This document shows positions 6,551-54,237 of a DNA stretch of 64,000 nucleotides, one piece after another. Below the pieces are notes generated by a model. The model saw only the letters and a list, made by a program, of their open reading frames with translations. It was not told the DNA's origin and searched no databases. The stretch is from Sphyrna mokarran (Eukaryota): NCBI GenBank assembly GCA_024679065.1, contig JAGIQG010000040.1, positions 3,968,001 through 4,032,000 on the forward strand, in the 5' to 3' direction. The position numbers were made by a program, and so were the translations under genes. The stretch's first letter is position 1. Each line of letters begins with the position of its first letter.

Positions 6551-9199
6551 ATGCACTCATCACCGAAAGGTCTGCTGTTTGCCATTTACTATCCTGTCCT
6601 TGCTGCTATCGGAATTCCTGGTAAGCTTACTGATTATTCATTATGGGAATCACTGCTTATCCCTCTTGTCATTCAGATTTAACACTCAAGCTTATCTATC
6701 GTACCGAGATCCCTGGATAATTTCTTTCAAATATGTTGAAAATCTTCGTTTTATTTGCTGTGATTTCTCCAATATAATGGAACTACTCCTTCTGTAGTTT
6801 GACAGTTGAAATGCTTCATTTTATCTGATAACGTTTTTCCCTTTCCCTGAAATAATTATTCCTCATGGCAAGTATATATCTTCCACCATTCCAGGAAATA
6901 AGTCTGCATGCTTTCATTAAACATGTGGAGAAGACAGAAGACAAGATGAAGTCCTTGAAAACACAAGGAGATCTAATATTATGGGAGCTGAGCAGCAAAC
7001 AAACAAAAGATAATGGCAACGTGTATCACATTGAGGCAGCAATACTCGAAATGTCTACTTTATAAAGGAAAAGTTTGCATGTAGAAATTAACGATCTGGA
7101 ACTTTTTATGAATTGAAAGAATCATAGCAATGCGTTGTTTCTTTCTCTTACTGGCATGGCGACTATACATTGCCTATACAATTTTTCCTCTTTAAATATA
7201 GACTATATTGCCTTGGTCAGTACAACTTCATTACTTCAAGTTTACATGTTGCTCTACATACTGTTCCCAACTCATGCTGCAAGTGCTATTTTATTTGATC
7301 GTTGATGTTATCAATGTGGCTGTACTTCGAAGTCAATATCATCGTTTAAAGTAAGTTCTGTTGTACCTGACTTGCATGTTTAATTTGTTTTTTGGGCAAC
7401 ATGAACAACCTTCCTTTGTTAAGTTGATTTTTTTTTTGCGCGCCTTATTTAGACAGTGACTCGGCTTATTGTACTGAGCCAGAAAATGAAAATACTGGCA
7501 CTGTAGATCTCCATCTGTGCAAAAGTCTTGGAATAGATATTGAACCCACAACCATATGACACAGACATTGAAGTTTTATTAACAAAATCATGCCTTAAGC
7601 ATTGCAGGTAAATTTTGTTGTATACGCCCCAGCAAAACATTTGGTTTCAGTAGTTTCAAATTAATTATCAATGTGGATTCCCGGATCATTTCCAATTTCA
7701 ACCACGTTCTTACGTTTTAAGTGCAATAAGTTCCCGGGCTCCGGTGAGGCGTCGTCCAGACTCGAAATATTCATTCCATTCTCTCTCCACAGATGCTGTC
7801 GGACCTGCTGAATTCCTTCAACATTTATTTTTCATGTTTCAGATTCCAGCATTCGCAGTATTTTGCCTTTATGTCCCAGTTTTCTTCTGGTCCTATGAGG
7901 CACTTGGCATTCTTGGACATTCAATTTCATATCTTGCATTTCAGCCAAATTGTTTTAATGTTAGTGGTCGTTGGATTTGGCAAGGACTTGACCATGTTTT
8001 CTCTCTTCTCTACACGTTGAACAAGGTACTAACTGATTGTATTTCCTGTAGCTGAGTCATCAGTTAGCAAGATAAATACCCAGGAAGTTTTCCTCACAGT
8101 TCAGTACCGTATTGGAGAAATGTTGCAGTTTAGTAAAGATTCTTCTCTAATGGAAGAGTAAGGTCACCAACTAGGATTGCCAATTCTGGCCTTTCTTAAC
8201 ATTGGGTTTTTAGTCATTCAATCTTTTAAACATTGATATTTCATTCTCTTTCTACGCCCCTTATTCACCGTTTATTTTGTCTACTACACAGCAAACTTGG
8301 CAGTGATTGCCATCCTAGCCCGTGGAAGATGTGGTCTCTCTGGATGTATCACTTACTATCTGGTATCTATGGCGGTGACAGATTTCCTAGTCATTGTTAC
8401 AGCTGTGATATTAAACCGGATTGCCCGTATCTACTTCCCATTCAGCTTCCTCTCCATCACTCCGGTCTGTAGTCTCAGCTTTGTGATCATTTATGGAGTC
8501 AGAGATTGTTCTGTTTGGACAACAGTCGCTTTTACCTTTGATCGATTCATCGCTATTTGTTGCCAGAAATTGAAAACAAGATATTGCATCAAGAAAACGG
8601 CAGCGACGGTAATAGGTACTGTTTGTGTTTTGAGTTGTGTTGTAAACAGCCCTTGGTACTTTGCATATGAGCCTTCGTTTGTCCTCAATGGTATTCCTTG
8701 GCTTTGCAGTGGAAAATCTGTATTTTATACGTCACTTCTATGGGCGGCATTTGATTGGATTCTAGTCATTTTAACCCCTTGTCTCCCCTTCATTCTGATC
8801 TTACTGCTCAATGTTCTGACTGTCAGACACATTTTAGCGGCCAATAGAGCCCGCAGGAGACTCCGAGCCCAGAACAGTGGAGAGAATCAAAGTGACCCAG
8901 AGATGAAGAAACGAAGGAAGTCCATTGTTTTACTCTTTTGTATCTCGGGGAGTTTCATCCTGCTGTACTCACTATTTTTTATAACAATTCTCTATGTACG
9001 ACTTGCGAATGTTACTTATTCCTCAGGTTCTGATTCCAGTAACTCAATATTTATTTTGGATGAAAGTGGAACTATGCTTCAGCTTCTGAGTTCCTGCATC
9101 AATCCCTTTATTTATGCAGGAACCCAAAGTCAATTTAGAAATGAGATAAAGAATGGGGTGAAGTATCCCCTGATGGTAATTGGCAAATTGTTTAATTAA
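6551..9199 (+). CDS. Two-exon class A GPCR, GPR139/GPR142-like, about 325 aa (exon1 6551-6620, exon2 8292-9199)
   Basis: Exon1 MHSSPKGLLFAIYYPVLAAIGIP with G|GTAAG donor; acceptor CAG|CA AAC gives ANLAVIAIL in frame; seven hydrophobic segments, TFDRF (DRY equivalent), NPFIY in TM7; AATAAA at 9499-9504. Confidence 0.9.
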
Positions 9200-21445: not shown

Positions 21446-21900
21446 ATGCGTATCCTCGGCATCTGGATTGTATGGGGAGCATTTCTAACAGGTATTTCTG
21501 GACATCATGTTCGTTGTCTTATTTCTAAAGCTTGGGTTGAATCTTCTGTTGAGTACACGTCCCTCTATTTGTCTATTTTAACGTATTTTTCAGATCTGAC
21601 CCATGGAGATTCTATCACTCAGCCGCTGTCCTCAGATGTTAAGACAGAAGGAGAGGCAGTGACATTAAACTGCAACTATGATACTGCAGAAACCAGCTAT
21701 AATTTGTTCTGGTATCGACAGCATCCAGACCCCCAGCTCGAGTACATTCTGAGGAAGTTTTCAGGGGGTTATGAAGATAAAGCAGATTTTGCTAAAAACC
21801 GTTTCTCGACTAACCTCCAAACCTCGAAGAAATCCATCAATTTGACGATTTTGGATCTGCAGTTGTCTGACGCGGCCATGTATTACTGCGCTTTCAGTCT
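21446..21900 (+). CDS. TCR alpha/delta V segment, intact (leader 21446-21491, V exon 21594-21900)
   Basis: Leader MRILGIWIVWGAFLT G|GT; acceptor TTTTTCAG; DSITQP...VTLNC...LFWYRQ...LSDAAMYYCAFS followed by an RSS. Confidence 0.93.
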
Positions 21901-21939
21901 CACAGTGATGCAAAGCAGTGTGACTCCTGTACAAAAACT
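21901..21939 (+). other. 23-RSS of the TCR V
   Basis: CACAGTG, 23-bp spacer, ACAAAAACT. Confidence 0.95.
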
Positions 21940-25419: not shown

Positions 25420-27388
25420 TCACCGATTTTGGCAAACGAATTTGGAGTAATTGGAATTGGATCCTCCGGAATAAGTTTCATTTGTAATTTTCAATTAGAG
25501 GAAATCCACAATGTATGTCATCACAACAGAATGAAACTTCCCGAGATGGCAAAGAATAAAATAACAGGCTTCTTCCCGTTCTCCGTTTCTGGATCCTCTA
25601 ATTCCCTGCACTGCAGTGCCCCCGGAGCCTACGGCGGGATCTATGGGCCTCCAGGAAGGGCCTGACGGTCAATGCATTAAGCAACAAAATCAGAAGGAAT
25701 GGCAGGATGGGACATAATATATGTGCAAACTAGTCAAGTCGGACCATAAGAAAGAAGTGTCGAAAGTTGATTTTATATTACAAAACCACAGCACATTATT
25801 CGTAATATAGAGTGGTTCATACATAAAATATCTGGGAATGCTTTTTAAACAACTCAACAAATAGGCGATTCCTATCACCACAACTGTTCTCCACCCCTCC
25901 CCCCCCCCCTCTCGGTGCAATAGTTTGCTTGCACTTTCTGGCAGCAAATGGCTACCTAACGTTCAAAGGTGAAAACGACGGTTAACTAGACTGAACTTTC
26001 CGTGGCTGCATTGATTGTCACAGTACTCAGGCTATAGGCTGGAGTCAACGACATAAAACTTACTGGAAAATTAATGCCAATAATCTGGTTGAATATCACA
26101 GCAGTGACAACGAAAAGTAGATCCGTCTCTACCATGGAAACCATATATCAAGTGAGATATTTGGAGAGACCACACCTTCCTTGGGAGAGGATCACAATCG
26201 TCACCAAGTTAACTGCGAGCAAAAACAAAGTTAAAGTTGTAAAGTTATTCAACAAATTCCAAGCAGGCATGTGGAAGTGACGGGCTTATTTGTGACACTT
26301 TTTTTGGTTTATATTTTATGGAAGACAATTATGCTTGGCTTATCAAGGTTAATTATATTTCAAAAAGAGCTCTATTTATGTCGCAAATTTAACGCTAAAG
26401 ATGTCTTCATAGGGAAGAAATGCAGCAAAGTTTGACGCACAACGACATGAGGCGATATTAAATGCTGAGCAACTTGACAATGAGATATGCTTCAAGAAAA
26501 TGTGTAATGAGCACAGTGAGGAAGAAAGGAAATGTGGTATAAGGCGGGAATTGCAAAGTTTAGGACCAAAAGGCTGAAGAACTCCGGATTGTATGTAAAA
26601 TTAAGTATTTAACATTTGGACCATGTAAAAGATAAGCAGAATAGCCTGTAAACGCCGTTGACATATCTGAGATCTTAAAATGTGTAATGTGATAAGAATT
26701 CGGTTTGGCTTATTAGGATTCTACAAGAATATTTTCAGCAAGCAGGATTTGTCAAGTTAACACCATTTAAGGAGTATCAGATGTGTTTTCATCAGAAACC
26801 CCGCTGGCTTGGAAACTACACTTCCAATATATTGAGCAATGACACTAATTGTTCCATTATGAGAAGTGAAAAAAAGTATATATATATTGTTTGCCTTTCA
26901 AAGAGTGAGAAGCGATCTAGTTGAAACAAATAAAATTATCAAGAGGCTTGTCAGAGCAAATACTGGGAGGTTGTGGCCCGCAGATTTTGGAATCATGCCC
27001 GAAGATTAGATTGTGGGATTTTTTTTTTTTAGGTTACTACCTATAGCTGAATGCTATCGATTACAAAGACATGAAAAGCCTTGCCTCGGTGTGCACATGC
27101 TGGCAAGAACAGAGTAGTGAATGTGTCAGAAACTTAATGAGTAAGGCTTGAGTTTAAATAAAAGACATATTTAAGTGACGAAAAGACAGGCTACCATTGA
27201 GTAAATAAGGTTTTAGAAGATAATGGAAACAATTAAGCCGTGTTCTTCATTACTGCAATCAGGATTAACTTCGTAAATCAACAATGCGTCAAGTTAATGA
27301 TTTAGTACCAGAACATACTTAGAACTCCAATGGCAGCAAGAATTGGATAGTAAATGACATAAAATACACCAGATATTCGTCCGTGCAT
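25420..27388 (-). pseudogene. GPR139/GPR142-like GPCR pseudogene (exon1 27319-27388, exon2 from 26212 down to about 25420)
   Basis: Exon1 MHGRISGVFYVIYYPILAAIGVL, 70 nt as in the paralogues; exon2 NLVTIVILSQGRCGLSKYLT* has an in-frame TGA, further stops and frameshifts. Confidence 0.85.
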
Positions 27389-28548: not shown

Positions 28549-28797
28549 GCAGCGGTGGCCAGGGAGGAGTGGCTGTCGCTCACCATTACGTGTGATTTCT
28601 ACGCTGGTTATGATTTCGAAACTGGTCATTCTTTTTTCAGACAAATCCAGACTGGGACAAAGCGTGAGCGGATCTCCAGTGAAGGGATATTTGTAGTGTT
28701 TGTGAATAAAACAGGAAAGACATTTTCACTGGAGATTCTGGATTTGATATTACTTTAAAGCTCAGCACTGGTACAACACATATGATGCAGCATAGTG
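28549..28797 (+). pseudogene. Orphan NAR-TCR-type V pseudogene
   Basis: AAVAREEWLSLTITC...FFRQIQTGTKRERISSEGIFVVFVNKTGKTFSLEILDL is clearly paralogous to the V at 36431-36719; FR3 deletion and frameshift, YYC changed to YYF, degenerate heptamer CATAGTG at 28791. Confidence 0.8.
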
Positions 28798-30271
28798 GAA
28801 GAGAGAAGGACAATTCTTAAATGCTTCTGAACAATCAAAGCAGTAATTCCAGGACCTGGTATTTTAATCGAAGTCAAATCCCACCATCTGTCGTAGCAGG
28901 ATTTGACCGATGCACTGCAAGAACTCACTAAGCCTCCTTGGGTGGTACATTTTAAACACACAACAGCTGCAATCTAGAAGGACACATCGAAACACTACCA
29001 CTATCCAGACTTGGAAATGTACTAGCTTCCTTCACTGCCCCTCAGTAAATATTCTGGAATTTCCTCCCTAGTCTCAAGACATTTCTATATGAAAATGCTA
29101 GAAGAACAGATCGAAATATTTGGATATATTTACACAGAGTCACGAGAGAATGCGAAAGTCTCTTTTTTTCTGAAACAGCGCAATGAATTTATGGCGCAAC
29201 TTGAAAAAGATGAGCGGGAAAGAGAAATAAATAGTGATATGGCTTAGGATGTAAATGGTTATTTCGTGTTCGAGAAGAGAAGAGCTGTACAAAACAAACT
29301 TCGACCAACTGAGCGGAATGGCCTATTCGTGTTGAGTGGCAAGGGTACAATGTAAACTTCAGAAACTGTTCTGTTCGGAAAGCATTGGAAACAATTAACC
29401 AATGGGCTGAAGGAAGTAATTCTCAGGCACCCTGAAGAGGCAGTTCCCACTGAGTAATAGTAAAACCACTGCGGAAACTGAAGAGACTGAACCCAACCGA
29501 CAACTGAGAGTCCTCAGATACGTTATCATGACGGTTAGAAACCGCAAAGAACAGACAGAAAACAACTCAGATGTAGAAATAAAACGAATTCAACTCTTTT
29601 TCTATTAAAAGTAAAATGACAGGATTAATGGAGCCCAACGGCAGGGAAGAGTTCATGAGGGTCGAATCTCGACAAATGTTGACATTTGACCCACACTATC
29701 CATTGCCAGTTGGGCTTAAAGAGTGCAGACGAATATCTGTAATTTGTGTTGAATTTTGATACGTGCAGGGACATAAAACTAATGATTATCCTTCAGTCAA
29801 TGAAGACTGGATAGTAATTAATCGGACAAGAATTGACATTAATGTTTTTTTGGGGGGAGTTCTTATTTCATCAACACATTTAGAAGCTAATATTGAATAA
29901 AAAGCAGAATCATGCAGCACAGAAGAGCATATTTCTGAAATAATGACAATTGAAGGCGCTGCCAGTTTTACGCATTCACCTTGCTATATTTCTCTTGGGA
30001 CTGTATTCATGCTTTGTTCCAAAATTTTCTTTACCTCACTATACTTTTGAAAGTTAAAGCCGCATTTCCCAGCACCACTCCTTCTGTTCCCAGCATCACC
30101 CTTTCTGCAGTTGAGTAAAATTTGCTGTGGATAGAAAAATAGCCCACAGATTTCTTATGCTTATTTACTTCCGTTGGTCAACAAATTTTGAACAAACTTC
30201 GTCATTTTCAGGTTTCTGCATTGCTGTCTCTGAGCTCTGTATCACTATGCCTGTAATACTCCCGAAGTTTA

Positions 30272-30310
30272 GGTTTTTATACAGCTCCTTCCGCATTCTG
30301 TATCACTGTG
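30272..30310 (-). other. 23-RSS of the supporting TCR-delta V
   Basis: Minus strand CACAGTG, 23-bp spacer, ATAAAAACC. Confidence 0.93.
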
Positions 30311-30616
30311 CTGTGCGCCGACTCAGTGCACAGTAATACACAGCCGAGTCACTTAGCTGCAGTTTGGAGATCGTTAACCGGCTGATCTTCTCGACAGAAT
30401 CGTCAGAAGCAGAAATTCTCCCCACGATAGCGTTTTCTTTATTCTCCCCTCCTGAAGTGTGTGTCTGAAGCAGGTATTTTAGAGCCTGCCCTGCGAAGTG
30501 ACTGTACCAATGTACTGTGTACTGACAGAACCCTGAATATTCACAGCTTAAAGTAACCGTGTCACCGACAACTGAGTTTTGGAGAGGTGGATTCTTGAAA
30601 TCCAGGGAACTGGAAT
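30311..30616 (-). CDS. Leaderless supporting TCR-delta V exon of a NAR-TCR cassette
   Basis: Acceptor TTTTCTCTTGCAG|AT; DSSSLDFKNPP...VTLSCEYSGFCQYTVHWY...LSDSAVYYCALS; extra Cys in CDR1; no leader exon seen upstream; phase-1 splice compatible with the J at 35582. Confidence 0.9.
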
Positions 30617-32229
30617 CTGCAAGAGAAAAGGTGGGCATCATTTGTTTGTTTAACCACTGTTTTCCGGTAGGTGGGGCGGGGGGAGATGGAGGGGATTGGA
30701 GGAGGGGATACGGTATGTAGGATATTGTTGACTAATCGCGTGAAAATCTGTACTTATTTTTTGATTTAAAACCTGTTCGAAACATATTGATTGTTATTGA
30801 AATATAACTCGTTCTAGAAAGGACAATGACTTTTTTTTGCTTCAGGATAGTGAATTCTTCCAATCTGGAGTGCGCTGGTGGTATATATAAAGGGGCATCA
30901 CCTACTTGATGGACCAAATTCCATCCTCCGACATTGTATGTTTGTTTATAATGTATATTGCATTAGTATTTATATATCCCTTCGTGAGTGACAAATCAGA
31001 AGACGCATTTTATCATCAATGATGAAATCGGCTTCCAAAAAATCATTGTCCAATAGTGACACAACGGCTTAGAATGACTGCACAAAATAAGATCCAACAT
31101 AAAGCAGTTGAGATTTTATTAGCATATATTGAGTCAAACATATAGACAAAATGGATCGTTCAATGTTCAAAAATTTAATGCTGTTCAACACTTCTTCCGA
31201 AGATTCTAAATTGTTTTGACCTATCTTCAAATTTTCTTTTGTCAATATTATCTCCTTAGTTCCTCTCTTGAAATATTTCGAGATTATTTCGTTTCATTTC
31301 TATATTTCTCCTGATGCTGTTTGTGCTTTTTGTAATCATGGGAACTTGTTCCAAATCCTTCAGCTGTCAGTTGGATTCCGTCTGTTTAGTTTCAGCAGTT
31401 GTTTTAGTCTTTCTTACTGGAACATGAGGCTTCCAGCTCTCTAGCAATTTCAATTCTTACTGTCCATTAACTGATTTTGTCCCGGTTTCTTTGGGGGAAA
31501 TTTTGTTTACGTTTTACATTGTAAAGTGTCAGCAGAAGATGAATGGGTCATAGAATGTTCTGACTAAAGTCTAGATCAATCTGCGCCCAGCCCAAATCTA
31601 ATCGACCATTCCCAGCCAAGTGCCTTTAGTGATATATTCCGTTGTCTCTCCTGATTTTTAAGGTTTCTGTTAAATACATGGATACTATAGTTTTAAGTTT
31701 ATTTATTAATATCATAAGTAGGCTTACATTACTACAGCAATAACGCCACTGTGAAAAATTAACCGCGGTGTGTGGAGGTTGTGAAAATCATTAACCAGTT
31801 TGGACTTAGTCTCTGGCGGAGAGATGGTCCAGTCACCCGTCGCCTTTGGGCATCAGGGACCTGATTTGCCCCGTTGCACCCGGGGAGAAGCACTGGCGGC
31901 AGGCAGGACAGTTGAAAAAAAAACTGATAGTTACGTCTATGTGACATTTTAAAGCTGCTCCCCCATTTAGTAATGTTGTGGCTGGCCTCACACATCAACA
32001 ACAAATTATTTCATTACACCCACGTGCATTGATTAGCTTAATATTCAACAATTTATCGATTTGACGAAGGGTGAACCAGTTACGAAATGTTGGCTCCATT
32101 CTCCATTTTAGGTCCATCCTTTTAACATTATTTGATCCTTCCTACAATTTTGCGCTGAAAGCCTGTTTCAACCTGGCCCTTCGTTTTTCCGCCTTTCACT
32201 TCTCTTGTGCTCTTCTCTGTCTTTCATTT

Positions 32230-33230
32230 CTGCGAATGACACAGCCCTCCTCTGACTATTTGTGTATGCTCTCATCCCCCTATCATTTTAGTTTCAAACC
32301 ACCCCCCCCCCACCTCGAACCACTCCAACAAATACTTCCCCTGGGACATCAAGTCCTTATCTTGCCCAGGTGTAAACCGTCTAGTTTGTACTGATGCCAT
32401 CTTTTCCAGAACCGGTTCCAATGCCCCAGGGATCTGAAACCCTCCCCCTCACGCCACCCCTTCAGCCATGTAGTCATCCGAAATATTCTGCTATTTCTAC
32501 TCTGACCAGCAGATAGAAATTGTAGTAATCCTGAGATCACTACCTTAGAGGTCTGTTTTCTCAACTTCCTTCCTAACTCTCTATATTCTGCTCTTAGTAA
32601 CTCATACTTCTTTCACATGTTGTTATTGATGAGGATGTCTACCACGATCACGCTGTATTTACCATCCCCCTCCAGAAAGTCATGTAACCGTTCTGATACA
32701 TCCTTGACTAAAGACCAGAGAGGCAACATACCATCCTGGAGTCCCGTTTGCTGTTATGGAAAGGTCTATCGATTTCCCTTTCAATGGAACTCCCTATAAC
32801 TGTTACATTCTCAGACTTTTTACTCCTCCCTTCTGCACCTGAATCACTCATGGTACAGGGAGTTTGGCTATCGCTGCTTTCTGCTGAGAGGTTATTTCTC
32901 ACGAAAGCATCCAAAACAATGTTTCAGTGCTTCAGGGCAATGGCTACGGGGGATTCCTGCGCTCCTTGCCGCGTCCTCTTCCTCTGCTTGGTAGTCACAC
33001 ATTCATTTCCTGCCTAGAGAATCTTAGACAAACTTTGACCCTTCTCTATACATGCCTTACACGATAAGCTCCTCCTCGTGTTTGTTCCATAGTCTCCCCA
33101 GCCATCGACCCAAATCTGAAAACCAGGTTTCTAGGAGGTGCAGCTGCAGACCCAAGTACTGAAAATGTTCTCGGATTTCCACATGGAACACAATGGGCAT
33201 ATCACGGCTTGTAACTCTCCTGCCCTGACT
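32230..33230 (-). mobile_element. CR1 ORF1 (SGNH esterase-like) fragment
   Basis: VTVIGSSIEREIDRPF...DSRMVCCLSG; KVVISGLL...WREGEGFRSLGHWNRFW...YKLDGLHL. Confidence 0.8.
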
Positions 33231-35106
33231 TTTCATTCAAATTAAGATGGAAGTTGTTTCAAATTAGACCATTTCACTCCTCTCCAGTGTTGGTCTATCC
33301 TGTTCTCCGTCCGTCCTTCATTTAAGTACATTTTCCTTAACTTTTTTTTTCCCATTTGTAATCATGTTACATTGATGAATACTGGCTTGGGCTGTTTCAT
33401 AAATCAAGTTATTCAACATCATTTGGTTGACCCTGTTCATAATTTAAATGGTTCCTATTCAATCAGTTCGTGTTTCTCTGTTTGACAAAAAAAATACATT
33501 AACGTGTTCAAACTTTTCAGAAAATTCAGATCCTTGCTGCTGTCTTTTTTGAGCACTTCAAAAAATTAAATGTCATAATATAATAAAATGAGTAGGAGTT
33601 AAAAAAAATCAACAACCTTGTCAGATTACAGCCAGCCTATCTGAATGCCACCTTCTTGAACTCTTTAGAATCTATGAATGTATCATGTACTTCCTTAAAT
33701 GTATTCAACCATTTACAATCCACAGCTGTAACATCGAATGTCACAGATGCACAATTGAATTAATACATTTATCATCATCAGATACATTAAAGAACAAAGA
33801 ACAATCCTGCACGGAAAACAGGCCCCTCGGCCCAACGAGCCCGCACCGCCACCTCGATGTTCCCACTTCTACCTATGATCCCTGTCATCCCATTATTTTG
33901 ATCATTTGCCCCCACTTTGTTTCTGGGGATATTGCAACTACCGCATCTAACCTGTAAACCCTCAAGCACTTTAAGTGTTCTAATATGATCACATGTGGTT
34001 CTTAAAATTTCTAAGGAATATTGGAAAAGTCTGGCAAACCACTCGTTATAGGTCACTGAAAAAAGTTAGATGAGCCTTTGTTTCACTCTTTCCGAAGCAA
34101 ATATATCCTTCCTAGAAATAAGTGGATCATTTTTTTTTTCAATGTATACAGAGTTCTTTTGCCTTCCTAGACTCCATTACTCTCATTCTGATACTGTATT
34201 GTGTATTATCCATCGCACATGATCATCTCGTCCTTTTCGGCATTTCGATGATTACCTTATGGTCCCATCTGGTATTTTCTCAAGTTTACACGTATTCCCT
34301 GGGGTGTTTCTGTTTATAGCCCCTGTCCCAAAACCACACTGTATAATTGTTCCTAGTTTTCCTGTCCTCCTTTATAAGATCCTCACTCTCTCACTTCACC
34401 GTGCAGTTGCAATTACCAATAATCAGGGATGCAGATACGTTACATTCAACCTTCTCCCAAATATCTACGGTGAGTAGAGAGAAATGTCTACAATTTAAAA
34501 CCTTCAAGTCGGTCTGATGGTGGAAAATGAAGAGAGTGGTGGTTTGTATCAAAATAATTGAAAGAAATGGCAGGTAGATTGTAATTTATTTCTGTCGCTC
34601 ATTGCCATGTAATAAATTTCTCCTGTGCCTAAATCGGCATCTCTTGTAACTGAAGTTCATTGTGTCACATTTCATTTTGATCAGTGTAGATAACGTCCAA
34701 TCTACGTTTTCCTTCAGCTTTGGACTCACATATAATGCCCAACTCAAACTGCAATCAAATAAGCAAAATACTGCGGATGCGCTAATCTGAAACAAGAGGA
34801 AGCGTCAAATGGACGCCAAACGTTAGCTCTGGTTTTCGGATGCTGCCAGATCTACCGAGTTTTCTCAGCATCATCTGATCTTATTTCAGTCTTCAATGAC
34901 CTGTTCAGGAGATATTTCTGTGAGTCCACTTCAAAGTTTGGGAGTGGGGTCCGTGCCTCGACAATCCATGCCTAATTACAATAAAAATTCTGGAAAGACT
35001 CAGCAATTCTGGCACCTTGTGTGGAGAGGGAAATCGTTAACATTTCAAGTACATATGCCCACCTGCTTGATCACTGTTTGAGTGTCAGTACACATTTAAA
35101 GATTGG

Positions 35107-35285
35107 AGACAGAGAAAGGCGGAGAGAAAGAGAGAGAGAGAGAATGTGAGAGAGGGAGAAAGAAAAAGAGAGAGAAACAGAGAGAAAGAGAGAGAGACGG
35201 AGAGAGAGAGAAAAAGGGCGAGGGAGAGTGAGAGAGACGGAGAGACAGAGAGAGAGGGAGAGACGGAGAAAATGTAAAGAGAGCC
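35107..35285. repeat. (GA)-rich compound microsatellite in the J-to-supporting-V intron
   Basis: Direct inspection. Confidence 0.9.
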
Positions 35286-35581
35286 GGGGATGCATTATTA
35301 GGATCAGCGATGTCCCCATTCAAACGATGATGGTCCCGATGGGTTGAAAACTTCGTCGACTAATAGTCTGTTTGTTACTCAGAATTGTGAAAAAAGTTAA
35401 ATGAGCCTTTCTACCTTGGTCCATATCATTATCCCAAATATAAAAATGAGATTGAAAATTGTTTCTTATAAAATGGTTCGGTTTTCATTTCAATGCGATT
35501 GAAATAATAGTGCAAGTTAATAAAAGGATAGTGAACATTAACTGGGACTACCTGTAACACCATACATTTGGAGTCACTTAC

Positions 35582-35641
35582 CGTCTGTGACAGTCACCAC
35601 CGTCCCGGATCCCTCTGCAGTGCCATATCTTGACTTATGAA
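35582..35641 (-). CDS. NAR-TCR-type J segment
   Basis: Minus strand HKSRYGTAEGSGTVVTVTD then G|GTAAGT donor (35576-35581); preceded by a 12-RSS; IgNAR-like xGxGTVVTV motif. Confidence 0.9.
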
Positions 35642-35669
35642 CACAGTGTTTCAAGGCAATACAAAAACA
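35642..35669 (-). other. 12-RSS of the J segment
   Basis: Reads CACAGTG-TTTCAAGGCAAT-ACAAAAACA on the + strand, facing the J. Confidence 0.93.
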
Positions 35670-35810
35670 CCCGGTTACTTGCAAATGTTAAGTGGTACAC
35701 AATGCGGCTCCCGATCCATGTGTGGGAGCAGAACTTCCTCTAGTGTGACAGTTTGTAACTTGGATCAGCGATTCCCAATCTCCATTCACTGACACCAGTG
35801 CAGAAAAAAT

Positions 35811-36250
35811 ACAAAGAACAAACAACAAAACAGCACGGGAAACAGGCCCTACAGCCGAACGAGCCCGCGCCGCCACCCCGTTGTTCCCACCTCTACCCGC
35901 GATCCCTGTCCATGTTTATAGATCTATGGATTAAAAACCAAATTTGAGACAATTTAGGGAGAATTTGTTTTGCCAATTAGCCTAAGAGCACATCTTTGGG
36001 ATGTGGGAGGAAACCGGAGCACCCGGAGAAAATCCATGCAAGCACGCAAACTCCCACAGACACTGGCCCAAATCCATGTATCTGCACAGCACAGCGATAG
36101 TCACTGAGCTGTCGTGTTGCCCATCAAATGGTCCAGGTTAAGCGCACACTAACGACGTGAAGCACGAGGATACTCTCCAAAAAGATCCAAGAGCAGTCCT
36201 CTCACGACCCATCGCGTGTATGCCCCTCGTTAGACAACAAGGTGGACCAA
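35811..36250 (-). mobile_element. Composite SINE inserted between the NAR-type V and J
   Basis: Reverse-complement match to 19540-19985 and 4845-5181. Confidence 0.85.
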
Positions 36251-36391
36251 CATAAAGTTTGCATTTATCAAGTTCAAGATATTAACGGCAATAATCCAGT
36301 CTGATATAAACAGTATTATGTGAAACTAAGCTGTGGGTTTCAATAGAAATCAATTCCGATACTTATTTGTTTCTGCGAAAATTTGCATGGT

Positions 36392-36430
36392 GAGTTTTGG
36401 TATCGAGGGAAGCCGAGGCCCTTCACTGTG
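36392..36430 (-). other. 23-RSS of the NAR-type V
   Basis: Minus strand CACAGTG, 23-bp spacer, CCAAAACTC (variant nonamer). Confidence 0.85.
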
Positions 36431-36882
36431 TAAATGTCCCAGTACTGAAACTTACAGTAATAGGTGGCCGTATCTTTAACATTCAAATCCCGAATTTCCA
36501 GCGAAAATGTCTTTTGTGCTTTATTGAGCGACATAACAAATCTCCCTCCGGCTGAGATCCACTCCCGCTCTGTCCCGGTCTTTGTTTGTTTGAAAAATTC
36601 TCCCTTTCCTTGAGGGCTAGATAAATAACCTCCATATAAAGTACAGGAGATGGTGAGAGACTGGCACTCTTTCCTGGTCACCGCTGCCGGGCTCTGTCTC
36701 ACTGACTGACTCAAGGATCCTGGAAATTAAACACAGAGAGTTTATTGGACCATCAGAGCGGAACAATACCACGGAGCTAAAACCCGAGACAGTGTCTGCA
36801 ATCCCGACAATGAGAGTTAGTTTGATCGGTACTCACGAGGTAAGTAGATACACAGCGTGAAAACAAAGAGGATTTCCATCAT
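36431..36882 (-). CDS. NAR-TCR V (IgNAR-like V domain), intact: leader 36837-36882, V exon 36431-36719
   Basis: Leader MMEILFVFTLCIYLP C|GTGAGT; acceptor TTTCCAG; QSVRQSPAAVTRKECQSLTISC...FFKQTKTGTEREWISAGGRFV...KTFSLEIRDLNVKDTATYYCK; short FR2-CDR2 as in vNAR; extra FR1 Cys. Confidence 0.9.
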
Positions 36883-37676
36883 CAAGCTAATAGTTCGCGT
36901 TATGGAGAAACCACAGCGAGATCTGGGATTTCTGGAGTTTAGAAATCAAATCTCGCCCAATTACTTGAGGAAATTCAGTTAATTTGCAGAGGAAATCTCG
37001 TGATCGACCCCCAGTTGCTTGATCATTGTCTGAGTGTTGCGTGAACCAGCAACAGGTGTCAGCAGGGAAACTGAACTCTTCTATCCCATTAGTTGAGATT
37101 ATGATCCGGATGTAATATCTCCGCCTACATTAATCATAGATATCAGAGGTGGGGCTGCGAGATATTCTGCAAATACTGTTGCCACAACTTTTTTCCTAAA
37201 GCCGGGCTGTGTTTGTCGAGGGCAGACTCAAGATCGCCGACAGAACAGCTTCCACCCCAGGCTCCAATATTCTTTTGAACCTTTCTCATTGCCCTAAACA
37301 CTCTAGTCGGATCAACTCTCAAAAGGAGCATCTTACTCAGGCCCACTCTGGGAAACAAAAGTTGGTGTTGAGTGATTGGCGAGTAGACTCTGATAAACTG
37401 AAAGGTTTCCGGGGAGAATTTGTGCCCCCTTTAAAATCAGCTTTTATGTTAAGAGAAAACCTCGGAATGTTTAATTGGTCTTGAAAGAAAAGTGAACAAT
37501 GTATAAATTTGCTTAACTCCTTTCTCCATCGACACCACTCCATTTTCCCAATTACACGGTTTTCTGCTTTCCAAGGCAGGAATTTTCCTTAGTTCCTGTT
37601 TATGATGTGGCTGAACTGAAAGTCTTTCCATGAAAGAGTCACCGCGCCACCAGTGGCTCATCCGTTTAAAAACACC

Positions 37677-45800: not shown

Positions 45801-46779
45801 TCAAGCATTACGACTATGAGATATCTATAATCCAGTGCATGGCTTCTGTTTGGAGTATATTCTGTACAATCACTCTCTCTCTCTCTTTCTTGCTACAGTT
45901 AATTTGGTGGCTATTGTAATCCTGAACCGAGGGAAGTGCGGTCTCTCCAGCTGTATCACTCGGTATCTGGTCTTCATGGCAGTGACTGACTTGCTCGTTA
46001 TTGTCACCGCAGTGATAATAAACCGGATTCCTGGTATTTATTTCCCTGGCAGTTTTTTGTCCATCACTCCAGTGTGCAGTCTCAGCATCACCTTAATTCA
46101 TGCAACAAGAGACAGTTCTGTCTGGTTAACCGTTGCTTTTACCTTTGATCGATTTGTGGCCATTTGTTACAAGAAGCTGAAAACAAAATATTGCACTGAG
46201 AAAATGGCGGCTGTGCTAATAGGAATAGTCTGTTTTTTAAGTTTCGTTAAAAGTATTCCTTGGTACTTTATACATGAACCTATTTACGTATTTGACAATG
46301 TCCCTTGGTATTGTCGACAAAAGGACATCCGTTATACTTCGATTTTGTGGACAGCGTTTGATTGGACTGACCGTATTTTAACACCATGTCTCTCTTTCGT
46401 TATGATTCTTCTGTTCAATCTATTGACCGTCAGACACATCCTTCTGGCCAATAAAGCCCGCAAAAGACTCACAGCCCAAAACAATCGAGAGAATAAGAGC
46501 GATAAAGAGATGGAAAATAGGAGAAAGTCCATTGTTTTACTGTTTGCAATTTCAGGTACCTTCATCCTGTTATGGTTGGCCTACGTTGTACAGTTCTTTT
46601 ATGATCGATTTACAAAGGATGTTAAAATCAATGGATACAGTGACCCCAAATTCATTCTCCGTGAAAGTGCAAATATGCTTCAGTTGTTGAGTTGCTGCAC
46701 AAACACATTCATTTATGCAGTGACCCAGGGTAAATTCAGGGAGCAGTTGAGAAATCTGTTGGCTTGTCACCTTAATTGA
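42839..46779 (+). CDS. Two-exon class A GPCR, GPR139/GPR142-like (exon1 42839-42908, exon2 45899-46779)
   Basis: Exon1 MHTPPRGLVYAIYYTVLAAVAVP G|GTAAAG; acceptor CTACAG|TT AAT gives VNLVAIVILNRGKCGLS; VWLTVAFTFDRFVAIC; NTFIY; AATAAA at 46796-46801. Confidence 0.9.
43460..43720 (-). mobile_element. HE1-like SINE in the GPCR intron
   Basis: GGAATTGAACCCAGG B-box complement and SINE core. Confidence 0.7.
45307..45624 (-). mobile_element. Young CR1 short 3' copy in the GPCR intron
   Basis: DSDSLFPRMEKASTRGHSFKLRG; (AGAACAT)n tail. Confidence 0.92.
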
Positions 46780-53665: not shown

Positions 53666-54237
53666 GGGTTTTGTATAGGGTTTACTGTATCTATGCACCA
53701 GTGTGTGCTCCATGGCACAGAAATACATGACGCTGTTAGATAGAAGAGCCCTGGCGATATTTAAATGAACAGTGTTATTCCCTTTATGTAAAGCAGCCGA
53801 GAATCTATTTGGGAAATCTGGAGAATATCGGTGTTGTCTGGTATCTTCATCAAATATCTCGGAGCTTGCCCGGGATACTGGATGTACCACAACAGGGTTC
53901 GAAGAGAAGGTGCTGAGTATTTACAGACCAGTGTTATGTCCTGTTCTTCCAGAAACGATAATTCAGATCGATTTTGAAACTCTGAATCTTCAGCTTTTGT
54001 CCCTGTAACAAAACACAGAAGTTATTCAATGTCTGGGAGTGAACATAGCCCATGGGACAGACACTGATGATTTAAACATTGGCTCAAAGTCAGTGCTGGA
54101 AATTTTCAGCAAATCTGACAATATGTGCGAGAGGAGAACAGAGATAACGTTTCGACTCAGGATGATACTTTGTCAGAGCTTATTGACTCACCGGGCTGCA
54201 AGACTATTATTACCAGCAACCAAAATAAGGAGCGCAT
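53666..54237 (-). pseudogene. TCR alpha/delta V pseudogene (leader 54192-54237, V exon about 53706-54002, degenerate RSS 53666-53705)
   Basis: Leader MRSLFWLLVIIVLQP G|GTGAGT; ITLVCKYS...LLWYIQYPGQAPRYLM, then a frameshift to YSPDFPNRFSA...VMYFCAME; nonamer ACAAAACCC with a non-consensus heptamer and spacer. Confidence 0.85.

Follow-up and report, generated by a model that had tools for sequence, protein, structure and literature searches.

A NAR-TCR cassette without a D segment in Sphyrna mokarran: probable germline loss of D and predicted assembly by a single V-J join

Is a cassette that carries the protein hallmarks of NAR-TCR, the receptor of cartilaginous fish in which an antibody-like variable (V) domain sits on a T-cell receptor (TCR) delta chain, also built in the standard way, with separate segments for V, D (diversity) and J (joining)? 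The question is raised by positions 30,272 to 36,882 of a 64,000-nt stretch of the Sphyrna mokarran genome (assembly GCA_024679065.1, contig JAGIQG010000040.1, positions 3,968,001 to 4,032,000 of the forward strand; hereafter the window, to whose positions the coordinates refer unless a contig is named). An initial annotation had read this region as a functional cassette of the architecture described in nurse shark. Our analysis favours, with a probability of roughly 0.6, a NAR-TCR cassette that lost its D from the germline, likely through the action of RAG, and that would be assembled by a single V-J join. The NAR-TCR system is known, and the D-less cassette is a derived form that the initial annotation took for the standard one; the novelty of this form is provisional.

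Identity of the cassette

The leader, the NAR V, the J, the intron of 4,965 bp, the leaderless V, the 12-type recombination signal sequence (RSS) and the 23-RSS of the supporting V were all found where they had been annotated on the minus strand, and the J would indeed splice to the supporting V in frame, in one of the three J frames. The parts are as follows.

36883..37040, minus strand: region where paralogs hold a conserved promoter/5' untranslated region block of about 160 bp; in this cassette the sequence is single copy and has either diverged strongly or been replaced
36882-36837, minus strand: leader exon, 46 nt, with a phase-1 GT donor; 79% identity with the leader of the paralog L015
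36720-36836, minus strand: leader intron, 117 bp, 31 bp less than in paralogs
36719-36431, minus strand: NAR-TCR V exon, open in the leader frame, with the a-b loop Cys and Phe replacing the canonical Trp
36430-36393, minus strand: V RSS, 23-type, spacer of 22 bp
35800..36255 (approximate limits), no strand assigned: interspersed repeat of about 455 bp inserted in the V-to-J spacer
35670..35810, minus strand: flank with homology to the DNA upstream of D in split paralogs
35669-35642, minus strand: 12-RSS heading the J, in the position of the upstream RSS of D
35641-35582, minus strand: NAR J, 60 nt, one open frame with a phase-1 donor, first 26 nt without a clear D remnant
30617..35581, minus strand: J-to-supporting-V intron, 4,965 bp, with repeats and without an extra NAR exon
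30616-30311, minus strand: leaderless supporting V-delta exon, open, with an AG acceptor and a Cys in the first complementarity-determining region (CDR1)
30310-30272, minus strand: 23-RSS of the supporting V
30249-30211, minus strand: further 23-RSS, weaker than the first and 61 bp behind it

Each real RSS of the cassette directly adjoins a coding end. The signals exceed chance expectation: one 12-RSS with at most two mismatches was observed against 0.10 expected, one 22-RSS with at most two mismatches against 0.07, and six 23-RSSs with at most three mismatches against 0.77. The V signal is present as annotated, while its spacer length had to be corrected, since 22 bp leaves two mismatches and 23 bp leaves three; a 22-bp spacer is also seen in 11 of 11 split paralogs, that is, cassettes of the same genome with separate V, D and J.

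The hallmarks of NAR-TCR, according to a secondary account (PMC1845163), are a leader, a Cys in the a-b loop, the lack of the canonical Trp and a supporting V-delta that has no leader and carries a Cys in CDR1. The cassette shows all of them. Cys18 in the a-b loop of the NAR V is common to 58 of 59 homologs; Phe41, in place of the Trp of the WYRK motif, is likewise Phe in 58 of 59 homologs, the Trp being kept in the IgNAR-like paralogs; and the CDR1 Cys of the supporting V is shared by 62 of 65 homologs. Both Cys residues for a predicted disulphide between the two V domains are thus present, and a search near the supporting V for a NAR leader exon gave no match, hence the supporting V is leaderless.

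The best PDB sequence matches of the first V are VNAR domains (E 4.5e-16), and VNAR structures also take the top ranks in a Foldseek search with its predicted fold (mean pLDDT 78.5, TM about 0.72). In a tree of 45 rows, whose reference rows are database gene models recognised by their two-V layout and not curated NAR-TCR cDNAs, it falls into a NAR-TCR clade of 35 rows (support 96/85), separate from three IgNAR-like V genes of the same genome (99/94); its position in a DNA tree of 15 NAR V rows is not settled. An IgNAR cluster, recognised by at least three D segments and by immunoglobulin (Ig) constant exons after the J, differs from this locus, which has no D and a V-delta exon behind the J. 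The hallmark residues, the tree and the predicted fold make it almost certain that the cassette is of the NAR-TCR type, as had been annotated, and that its first V groups neither with IgNAR nor with IgH or conventional TCR V.

The supporting V finds its nearest database homologs in Mustelus gene models (up to 83%). The annotation had also expected this cassette to be missed by ordinary pipelines, which for such cassettes holds as to naming and fails as to prediction: both V domains are held in 58 of 62 database proteins found, none of which bears the name NAR-TCR, so that such cassettes are usually predicted but mislabelled.

Loss of the D segment from the germline

A relaxed scan of the interval between V and J found no paired RSSs, and a hidden D was rejected on this ground. 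The J carries a 12-RSS, and the DNA in front of it identifies the origin of this signal. Using 6 of the 11 split paralogs, we compared the 170 nt upstream of the 12-RSS with the upstream flanks of D and of J. Against the D flank the z-scores are 9.5-10.4 in all six paralogs, a level reached by none of 200 shuffles; against the J flank they are -0.5 to 1.4, again in all six. The homology to the D flank extends over about 140 bp plus the RSS, the alignment continuing through nonamer, spacer and heptamer, which rules out a J RSS shortened from 23 to 12. Since the flank is that of D and not that of J, the D-to-J interval has been removed from the germline, with one somatic joint left. As judged from the sequence, about 400 bp is lost, including the downstream RSS of D, the spacer and the 23-RSS of J, and the D itself is very probably gone from the inherited DNA.

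Partner block and proposed assembly

The genome contains 13 C-delta-like exons, none of which lies downstream of the cassette on its own strand, so that a partner of this kind was rejected; a homolog search returned no alpha constant region, and no J motif was found in contig 3,968,001-4,232,000 (264 kb from the window start). The nearest C-delta is an open exon on the plus strand at contig 3,868,715, with one 12-D-23 segment and five J motifs ahead of it. From this exon to the cassette, which follows it in the opposite orientation, the distance is 129 kb, and other inverted V genes stand in between; because of this orientation relative to the D-J-C-delta block the supporting V would have to join by inversion.

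We envisage two somatic steps on a locus that has lost the inherited D and both inner recombination signals, likely via a RAG-type join in the germ line, and whose NAR domain would come from a single V-to-J join. The NAR V with its 22-bp RSS would join the J with its 12-RSS, deleting about 790 bp and being in frame about one time in three. The supporting V with its 23-RSS would join D-delta or J-delta at contig 3.85-3.87 Mb by inverting some 130-150 kb. Splicing of leader, NAR VJ, supporting VDJ and C-delta would then yield a delta chain of three domains with a less diverse outer CDR3.

A second D-J-C-delta block, with IgH-type V upstream, lies at C994 5.36-5.39 Mb.

Evidence for and against expression

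All four exons are open, and the four splice sites and three RSSs are intact, despite the deletion of 31 bp in the leader intron and the insertion of about 455 bp in the spacer. Changes specific to the branch of this cassette, polarised by five paralogs per exon, comprise 22 nonsynonymous and 18 synonymous ones; the ratio of their rates (pN/pS) is 0.36 (p=0.0014), which points to purifying selection. Departures at conserved columns stay inside the range of the family (4 of 42, a number that 18 of 59 homologs reach or surpass, and 4 of 45, which 23 of 65 reach or surpass).

The same structure and origin would also be expected of a cassette that has fallen silent through recent loss of its promoter, its coding parts not yet having decayed, and several observations weigh on this side and against expression. 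All eight paralogs examined share a conserved block of about 160 bp upstream of the ATG (z 20-24 among them). In the window cassette it can barely be detected, with z reaching at most 3.1 in global and 4.4 in local alignment, and a GC-box-like motif in it is changed as well; the intron adjoining it aligns well to paralogs (z 12-22). The selection test, being an average over the whole branch, is compatible with recent silencing, the end branch of the NAR V is long (0.33 against a median of 0.1), the cassette lies inverted behind C-delta, and its NAR cassette neighbours, near 28.5 kb in the window and at 3.90 Mb on the contig, are broken. Among RNA data from four weakly matching runs (0.07-0.15 of words), no contig was found over the J or the splice in 30200-35900.

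The cover in these runs falls almost wholly on repeats and says nothing either way, and one contig of 202 nt on the supporting V comes from another gene or species, as it differs at 28 positions. A promoter taken from another V gene was also considered and rejected, as the upstream DNA of the cassette is single copy, with no match in the genome or in the examined cassette loci. Intact signals and purifying selection favour the term functional of the initial annotation; the hardly recognisable promoter block and the absence of RNA support speak against it. Since the exons, splice sites and RSSs have survived amid damaged non-coding DNA, under purifying selection and with ordinary departures from conserved columns, silence of the cassette is unlikely, and the sequence leans somewhat towards continued expression.

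Origin of the D loss

Both ends of the lost segment of about 400 bp lie inside the 26 nt that separate the heptamer from the conserved J core, where no RSS remains; the inner RSSs and the spacer are gone, and the outer RSS and the coding parts are retained, as is characteristic of RAG-made germline joins. A RAG-type germline join is probable, because both ends fall at RAG cut positions, three other types of join in the family likewise end at RSS cut sites, and RAG-like germline joining has been published for shark Ig, according to the available parts of PMC2193156, PMC4279169 and PMC5192425.

Other observations speak against this origin. The 26-nt J head, which falls short of the combined D and J head of four paralogs by 6-14 nt, shows no anchored similarity to six D variants (2-4 of 16) and only modest similarity to J heads (5 of 10 variants at p about 0.01-0.02); a D remnant in it was sought and none was detected, and consequently no RAG junction signature can be read there. 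Nor was an ortholog with the D-less layout met in another species, in a search that took in no other shark genome. In a hybrid joint, the upstream RSS of D would have been ligated to the J coding end. The sequence of the locus does not separate such a joint from a D-J coding joint with a D that diverged later, or from a plain deletion.

The D may accordingly have been lost by an ordinary deletion unrelated to RAG, the cassette being kept since a usable 12-RSS chanced to precede the J. The lack of a readable D remnant or of P nucleotides is consistent with such a deletion, and selection would retain only deletions sparing the RSS and the J; what makes it rather improbable is that both ends fell within 26 nt holding both RAG cut positions, and that the other joins of the family end in the same way.

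A D-less V23-J12 layout native to a standard NAR-TCR cassette, as the initial annotation had it, would agree with the protein hallmarks, and its 22/12 pair obeys the 12/23 rule. It is very improbable, being contradicted by the flank homology, which is to the flank of D and not to that of J. The nurse shark architecture is not matched here either: in the genome 13 cassettes carry a 12-D-12 segment and a J with a 23-RSS, the D-less layout is seen in one of 28 V matches of the NAR-TCR type, and each of the two V domains of nurse shark NAR-TCR comes from a VDJ rearrangement, as given in secondary text (PMC1845163). Finally, although the join is single copy and known from the assembly alone, an assembly artefact in which a T-cell allele with a somatic rearrangement, or a collapsed join, was taken for germline is scarcely credible, since a partial rearrangement would presumably be present in few cells, the segment is open in frame, and other germline joins in this genome are duplicated with near-identical junctions and hence inherited.

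Related cassettes in the S. mokarran genome

A search of the genome for NAR V, in which 150 of 243 candidates were scored, gave at least 36 matches, at least 28 of them of the NAR-TCR type, and all 28 neighbourhoods of the latter were examined. The cassette tallies are not gene counts, since five of the contigs that carry the matches are small and possibly duplicate haplotypes. Thirteen of the 28 belong to split cassettes (V-12D12-23J) and one more has V and D with no J found; six are VD-joined, three of these being broken; seven are leaderless, fully joined VDJ exons; and one is the D-less V of the window with its 12-RSS J.

The VD joins were confirmed in four of four cases tested by homology of the flank to the D-J spacer (z 4.6-5.4), the other two being classed by RSS alone. 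One of the broken genes lies in the window:

28549-28848, plus strand: VD-joined NAR-TCR V, broken, with a degenerate 12-RSS (about 28791-28818) at its end

Together with this gene, the VD-joined V genes of loci L006, L007, L008, L013 and L014 surround the 3.85-Mb delta block, near which no split cassette was found.

The seven leaderless joined VDJ exons sit within the J-to-supporting-V intron. They have AG acceptors, 348 open nt and phase 1 at both ends, and no match to a leader ATG was found upstream of them.

L001: 3345-2998, minus strand, intronic joined exon
L015: 6744 and 9023, intronic joined exons
L016: 1317 and 4159, intronic joined exons
L018: 1383, intronic joined exon
L019: 6553, intronic joined exon

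One cassette, on C1271, holds four of them. The exons predict delta chains of four to seven domains, with one to four extra fixed domains. In a Carcharodon gene model (P0004) NAR domains stand in tandem and the fixed junction is similar (75% over 115 residues), and a Heterodontus gene model has a repeated NAR V-J unit; the likeness of the Carcharodon junction suggests that the extra exons are old.

A further type of join concerns the supporting V. In seven cassettes at contig 10.4-12.3 Mb it ends directly on a copy of the downstream RSS and flank of D-delta (84-87% over about 120 nt), followed by J-delta; in four others its own RSS is kept and a degenerate copy of the D-delta flank follows (70-72%). 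C-delta lies within about 13 kb in 10 of these 11 cassettes. This arrangement suggests that germline joining of the supporting V to D-delta may have created self-contained miniclusters.

C994 10.43-12.33 Mb: NAR-TCR miniclusters, L003-L005, L009-L012 and L039-L047

RSSs of the 23 type are stacked with a period of about 61 bp behind several supporting V genes (window 30211-30310; L002, L006, L007, L008, L016). At L002, L057, L058 and L059 the array is kept, and one of its later units passes into the degenerate D-delta flank, which looks like the outcome of a germline join at a downstream RSS of the stack.

Taken together, split, VD-joined and D-collapsed V-J cassettes (the last possibly a fossil hybrid joint), miniclusters and stacked pre-joined exons raise the possibility, which we put forward tentatively, that RAG in shark germ cells has repeatedly rebuilt the NAR-TCR family. 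If this is true, the activity of the recombinase in germ cells extends to a shark TCR locus, the cassette and its relatives show a route from translocon to minicluster, and T-cell receptors with semi-fixed single domains become testable cases, for which joined shark Ig suggests, by analogy, a possible role early in life. By itself, the cassette of the window is a modest variant of a known system.

Comparison with known systems

With the NAR-TCR of cartilaginous fish, as far as the available parts of PMC1845163, PMC12227049 and PMC5931798 describe it, the cassette shares the leader, a NAR V with the a-b loop Cys and no canonical Trp, a J that would be spliced to a leaderless V-delta bearing its own RSS and a CDR1 Cys, and, as predicted, the need for two separate rearrangements and the common use of C-delta. 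It differs from the standard form in that its NAR unit has no D, a J headed by the upstream 12-RSS of D and one somatic joint instead of two, that its promoter block is barely recognisable, and that it lies inverted 3' of C-delta.

Shark Ig clusters occur in the germline-joined forms VD-J, VD-DJ, VDJ and VJ, according to what is available of PMC5192425, PMC4279169 and PMC2193156. Inherited, partly joined segments, the clean removal of the inner RSS and the presence of split relatives alongside are common to both systems, whereas those joins concern Ig loci and not a TCR-delta cassette, and a V with a D-collapsed J was not met in these parts of the papers. The TCR-mu of marsupials and platypus (PMC7615758 and PMC3457774, as far as available) is also a chain of three domains with an unpaired outer V, with germline joining in marsupials and a D-less V-J join in platypus; there, however, it is the supporting domain that is joined or D-less, and here the outer NAR domain, the origin is independent, and C-delta would be used here.

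A literature search on germline-joined NAR-TCR found none; the primary NAR-TCR papers, which lay outside that search, may describe some of the layouts. An inverted V 3' of C-delta is known, presumably under the name TRDV3. Inverted V after a C exon is mentioned for delta loci in the available text of PMC12227049, where V genes 3' of C-delta and C-beta resemble the present case in having a 23-RSS V behind the constant exon in the opposite orientation and in needing an inversion; the difference is that a whole two-V cassette is placed in this way here. The available part of the supplement of PMC3964593 contains no NAR terms.

Neighbouring genes

A conventional TCR alpha/delta V, open and with a good 23-RSS, lies at 21602-21939 on the plus strand, 3' of C-delta and in the same orientation, with no J found within about 240 kb downstream. 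At 53666-53950 on the minus strand a TCR-type V is broken by stops or a frameshift and has an RSS-like end with a 24-bp spacer. Single-exon frames of rhodopsin-family G-protein-coupled receptors occupy 8237-9199 and 45820-46779 on the plus strand, with a remnant near 25741-26237 on the minus strand, and the adjoining 180 kb has related copies dispersed between its V genes. At C994 4,046,209-4,047,744 and 4,165,270-4,166,805, IgH-type V genes stand among TCR V genes and are followed by D-like RSS pairs and further 23-RSSs.

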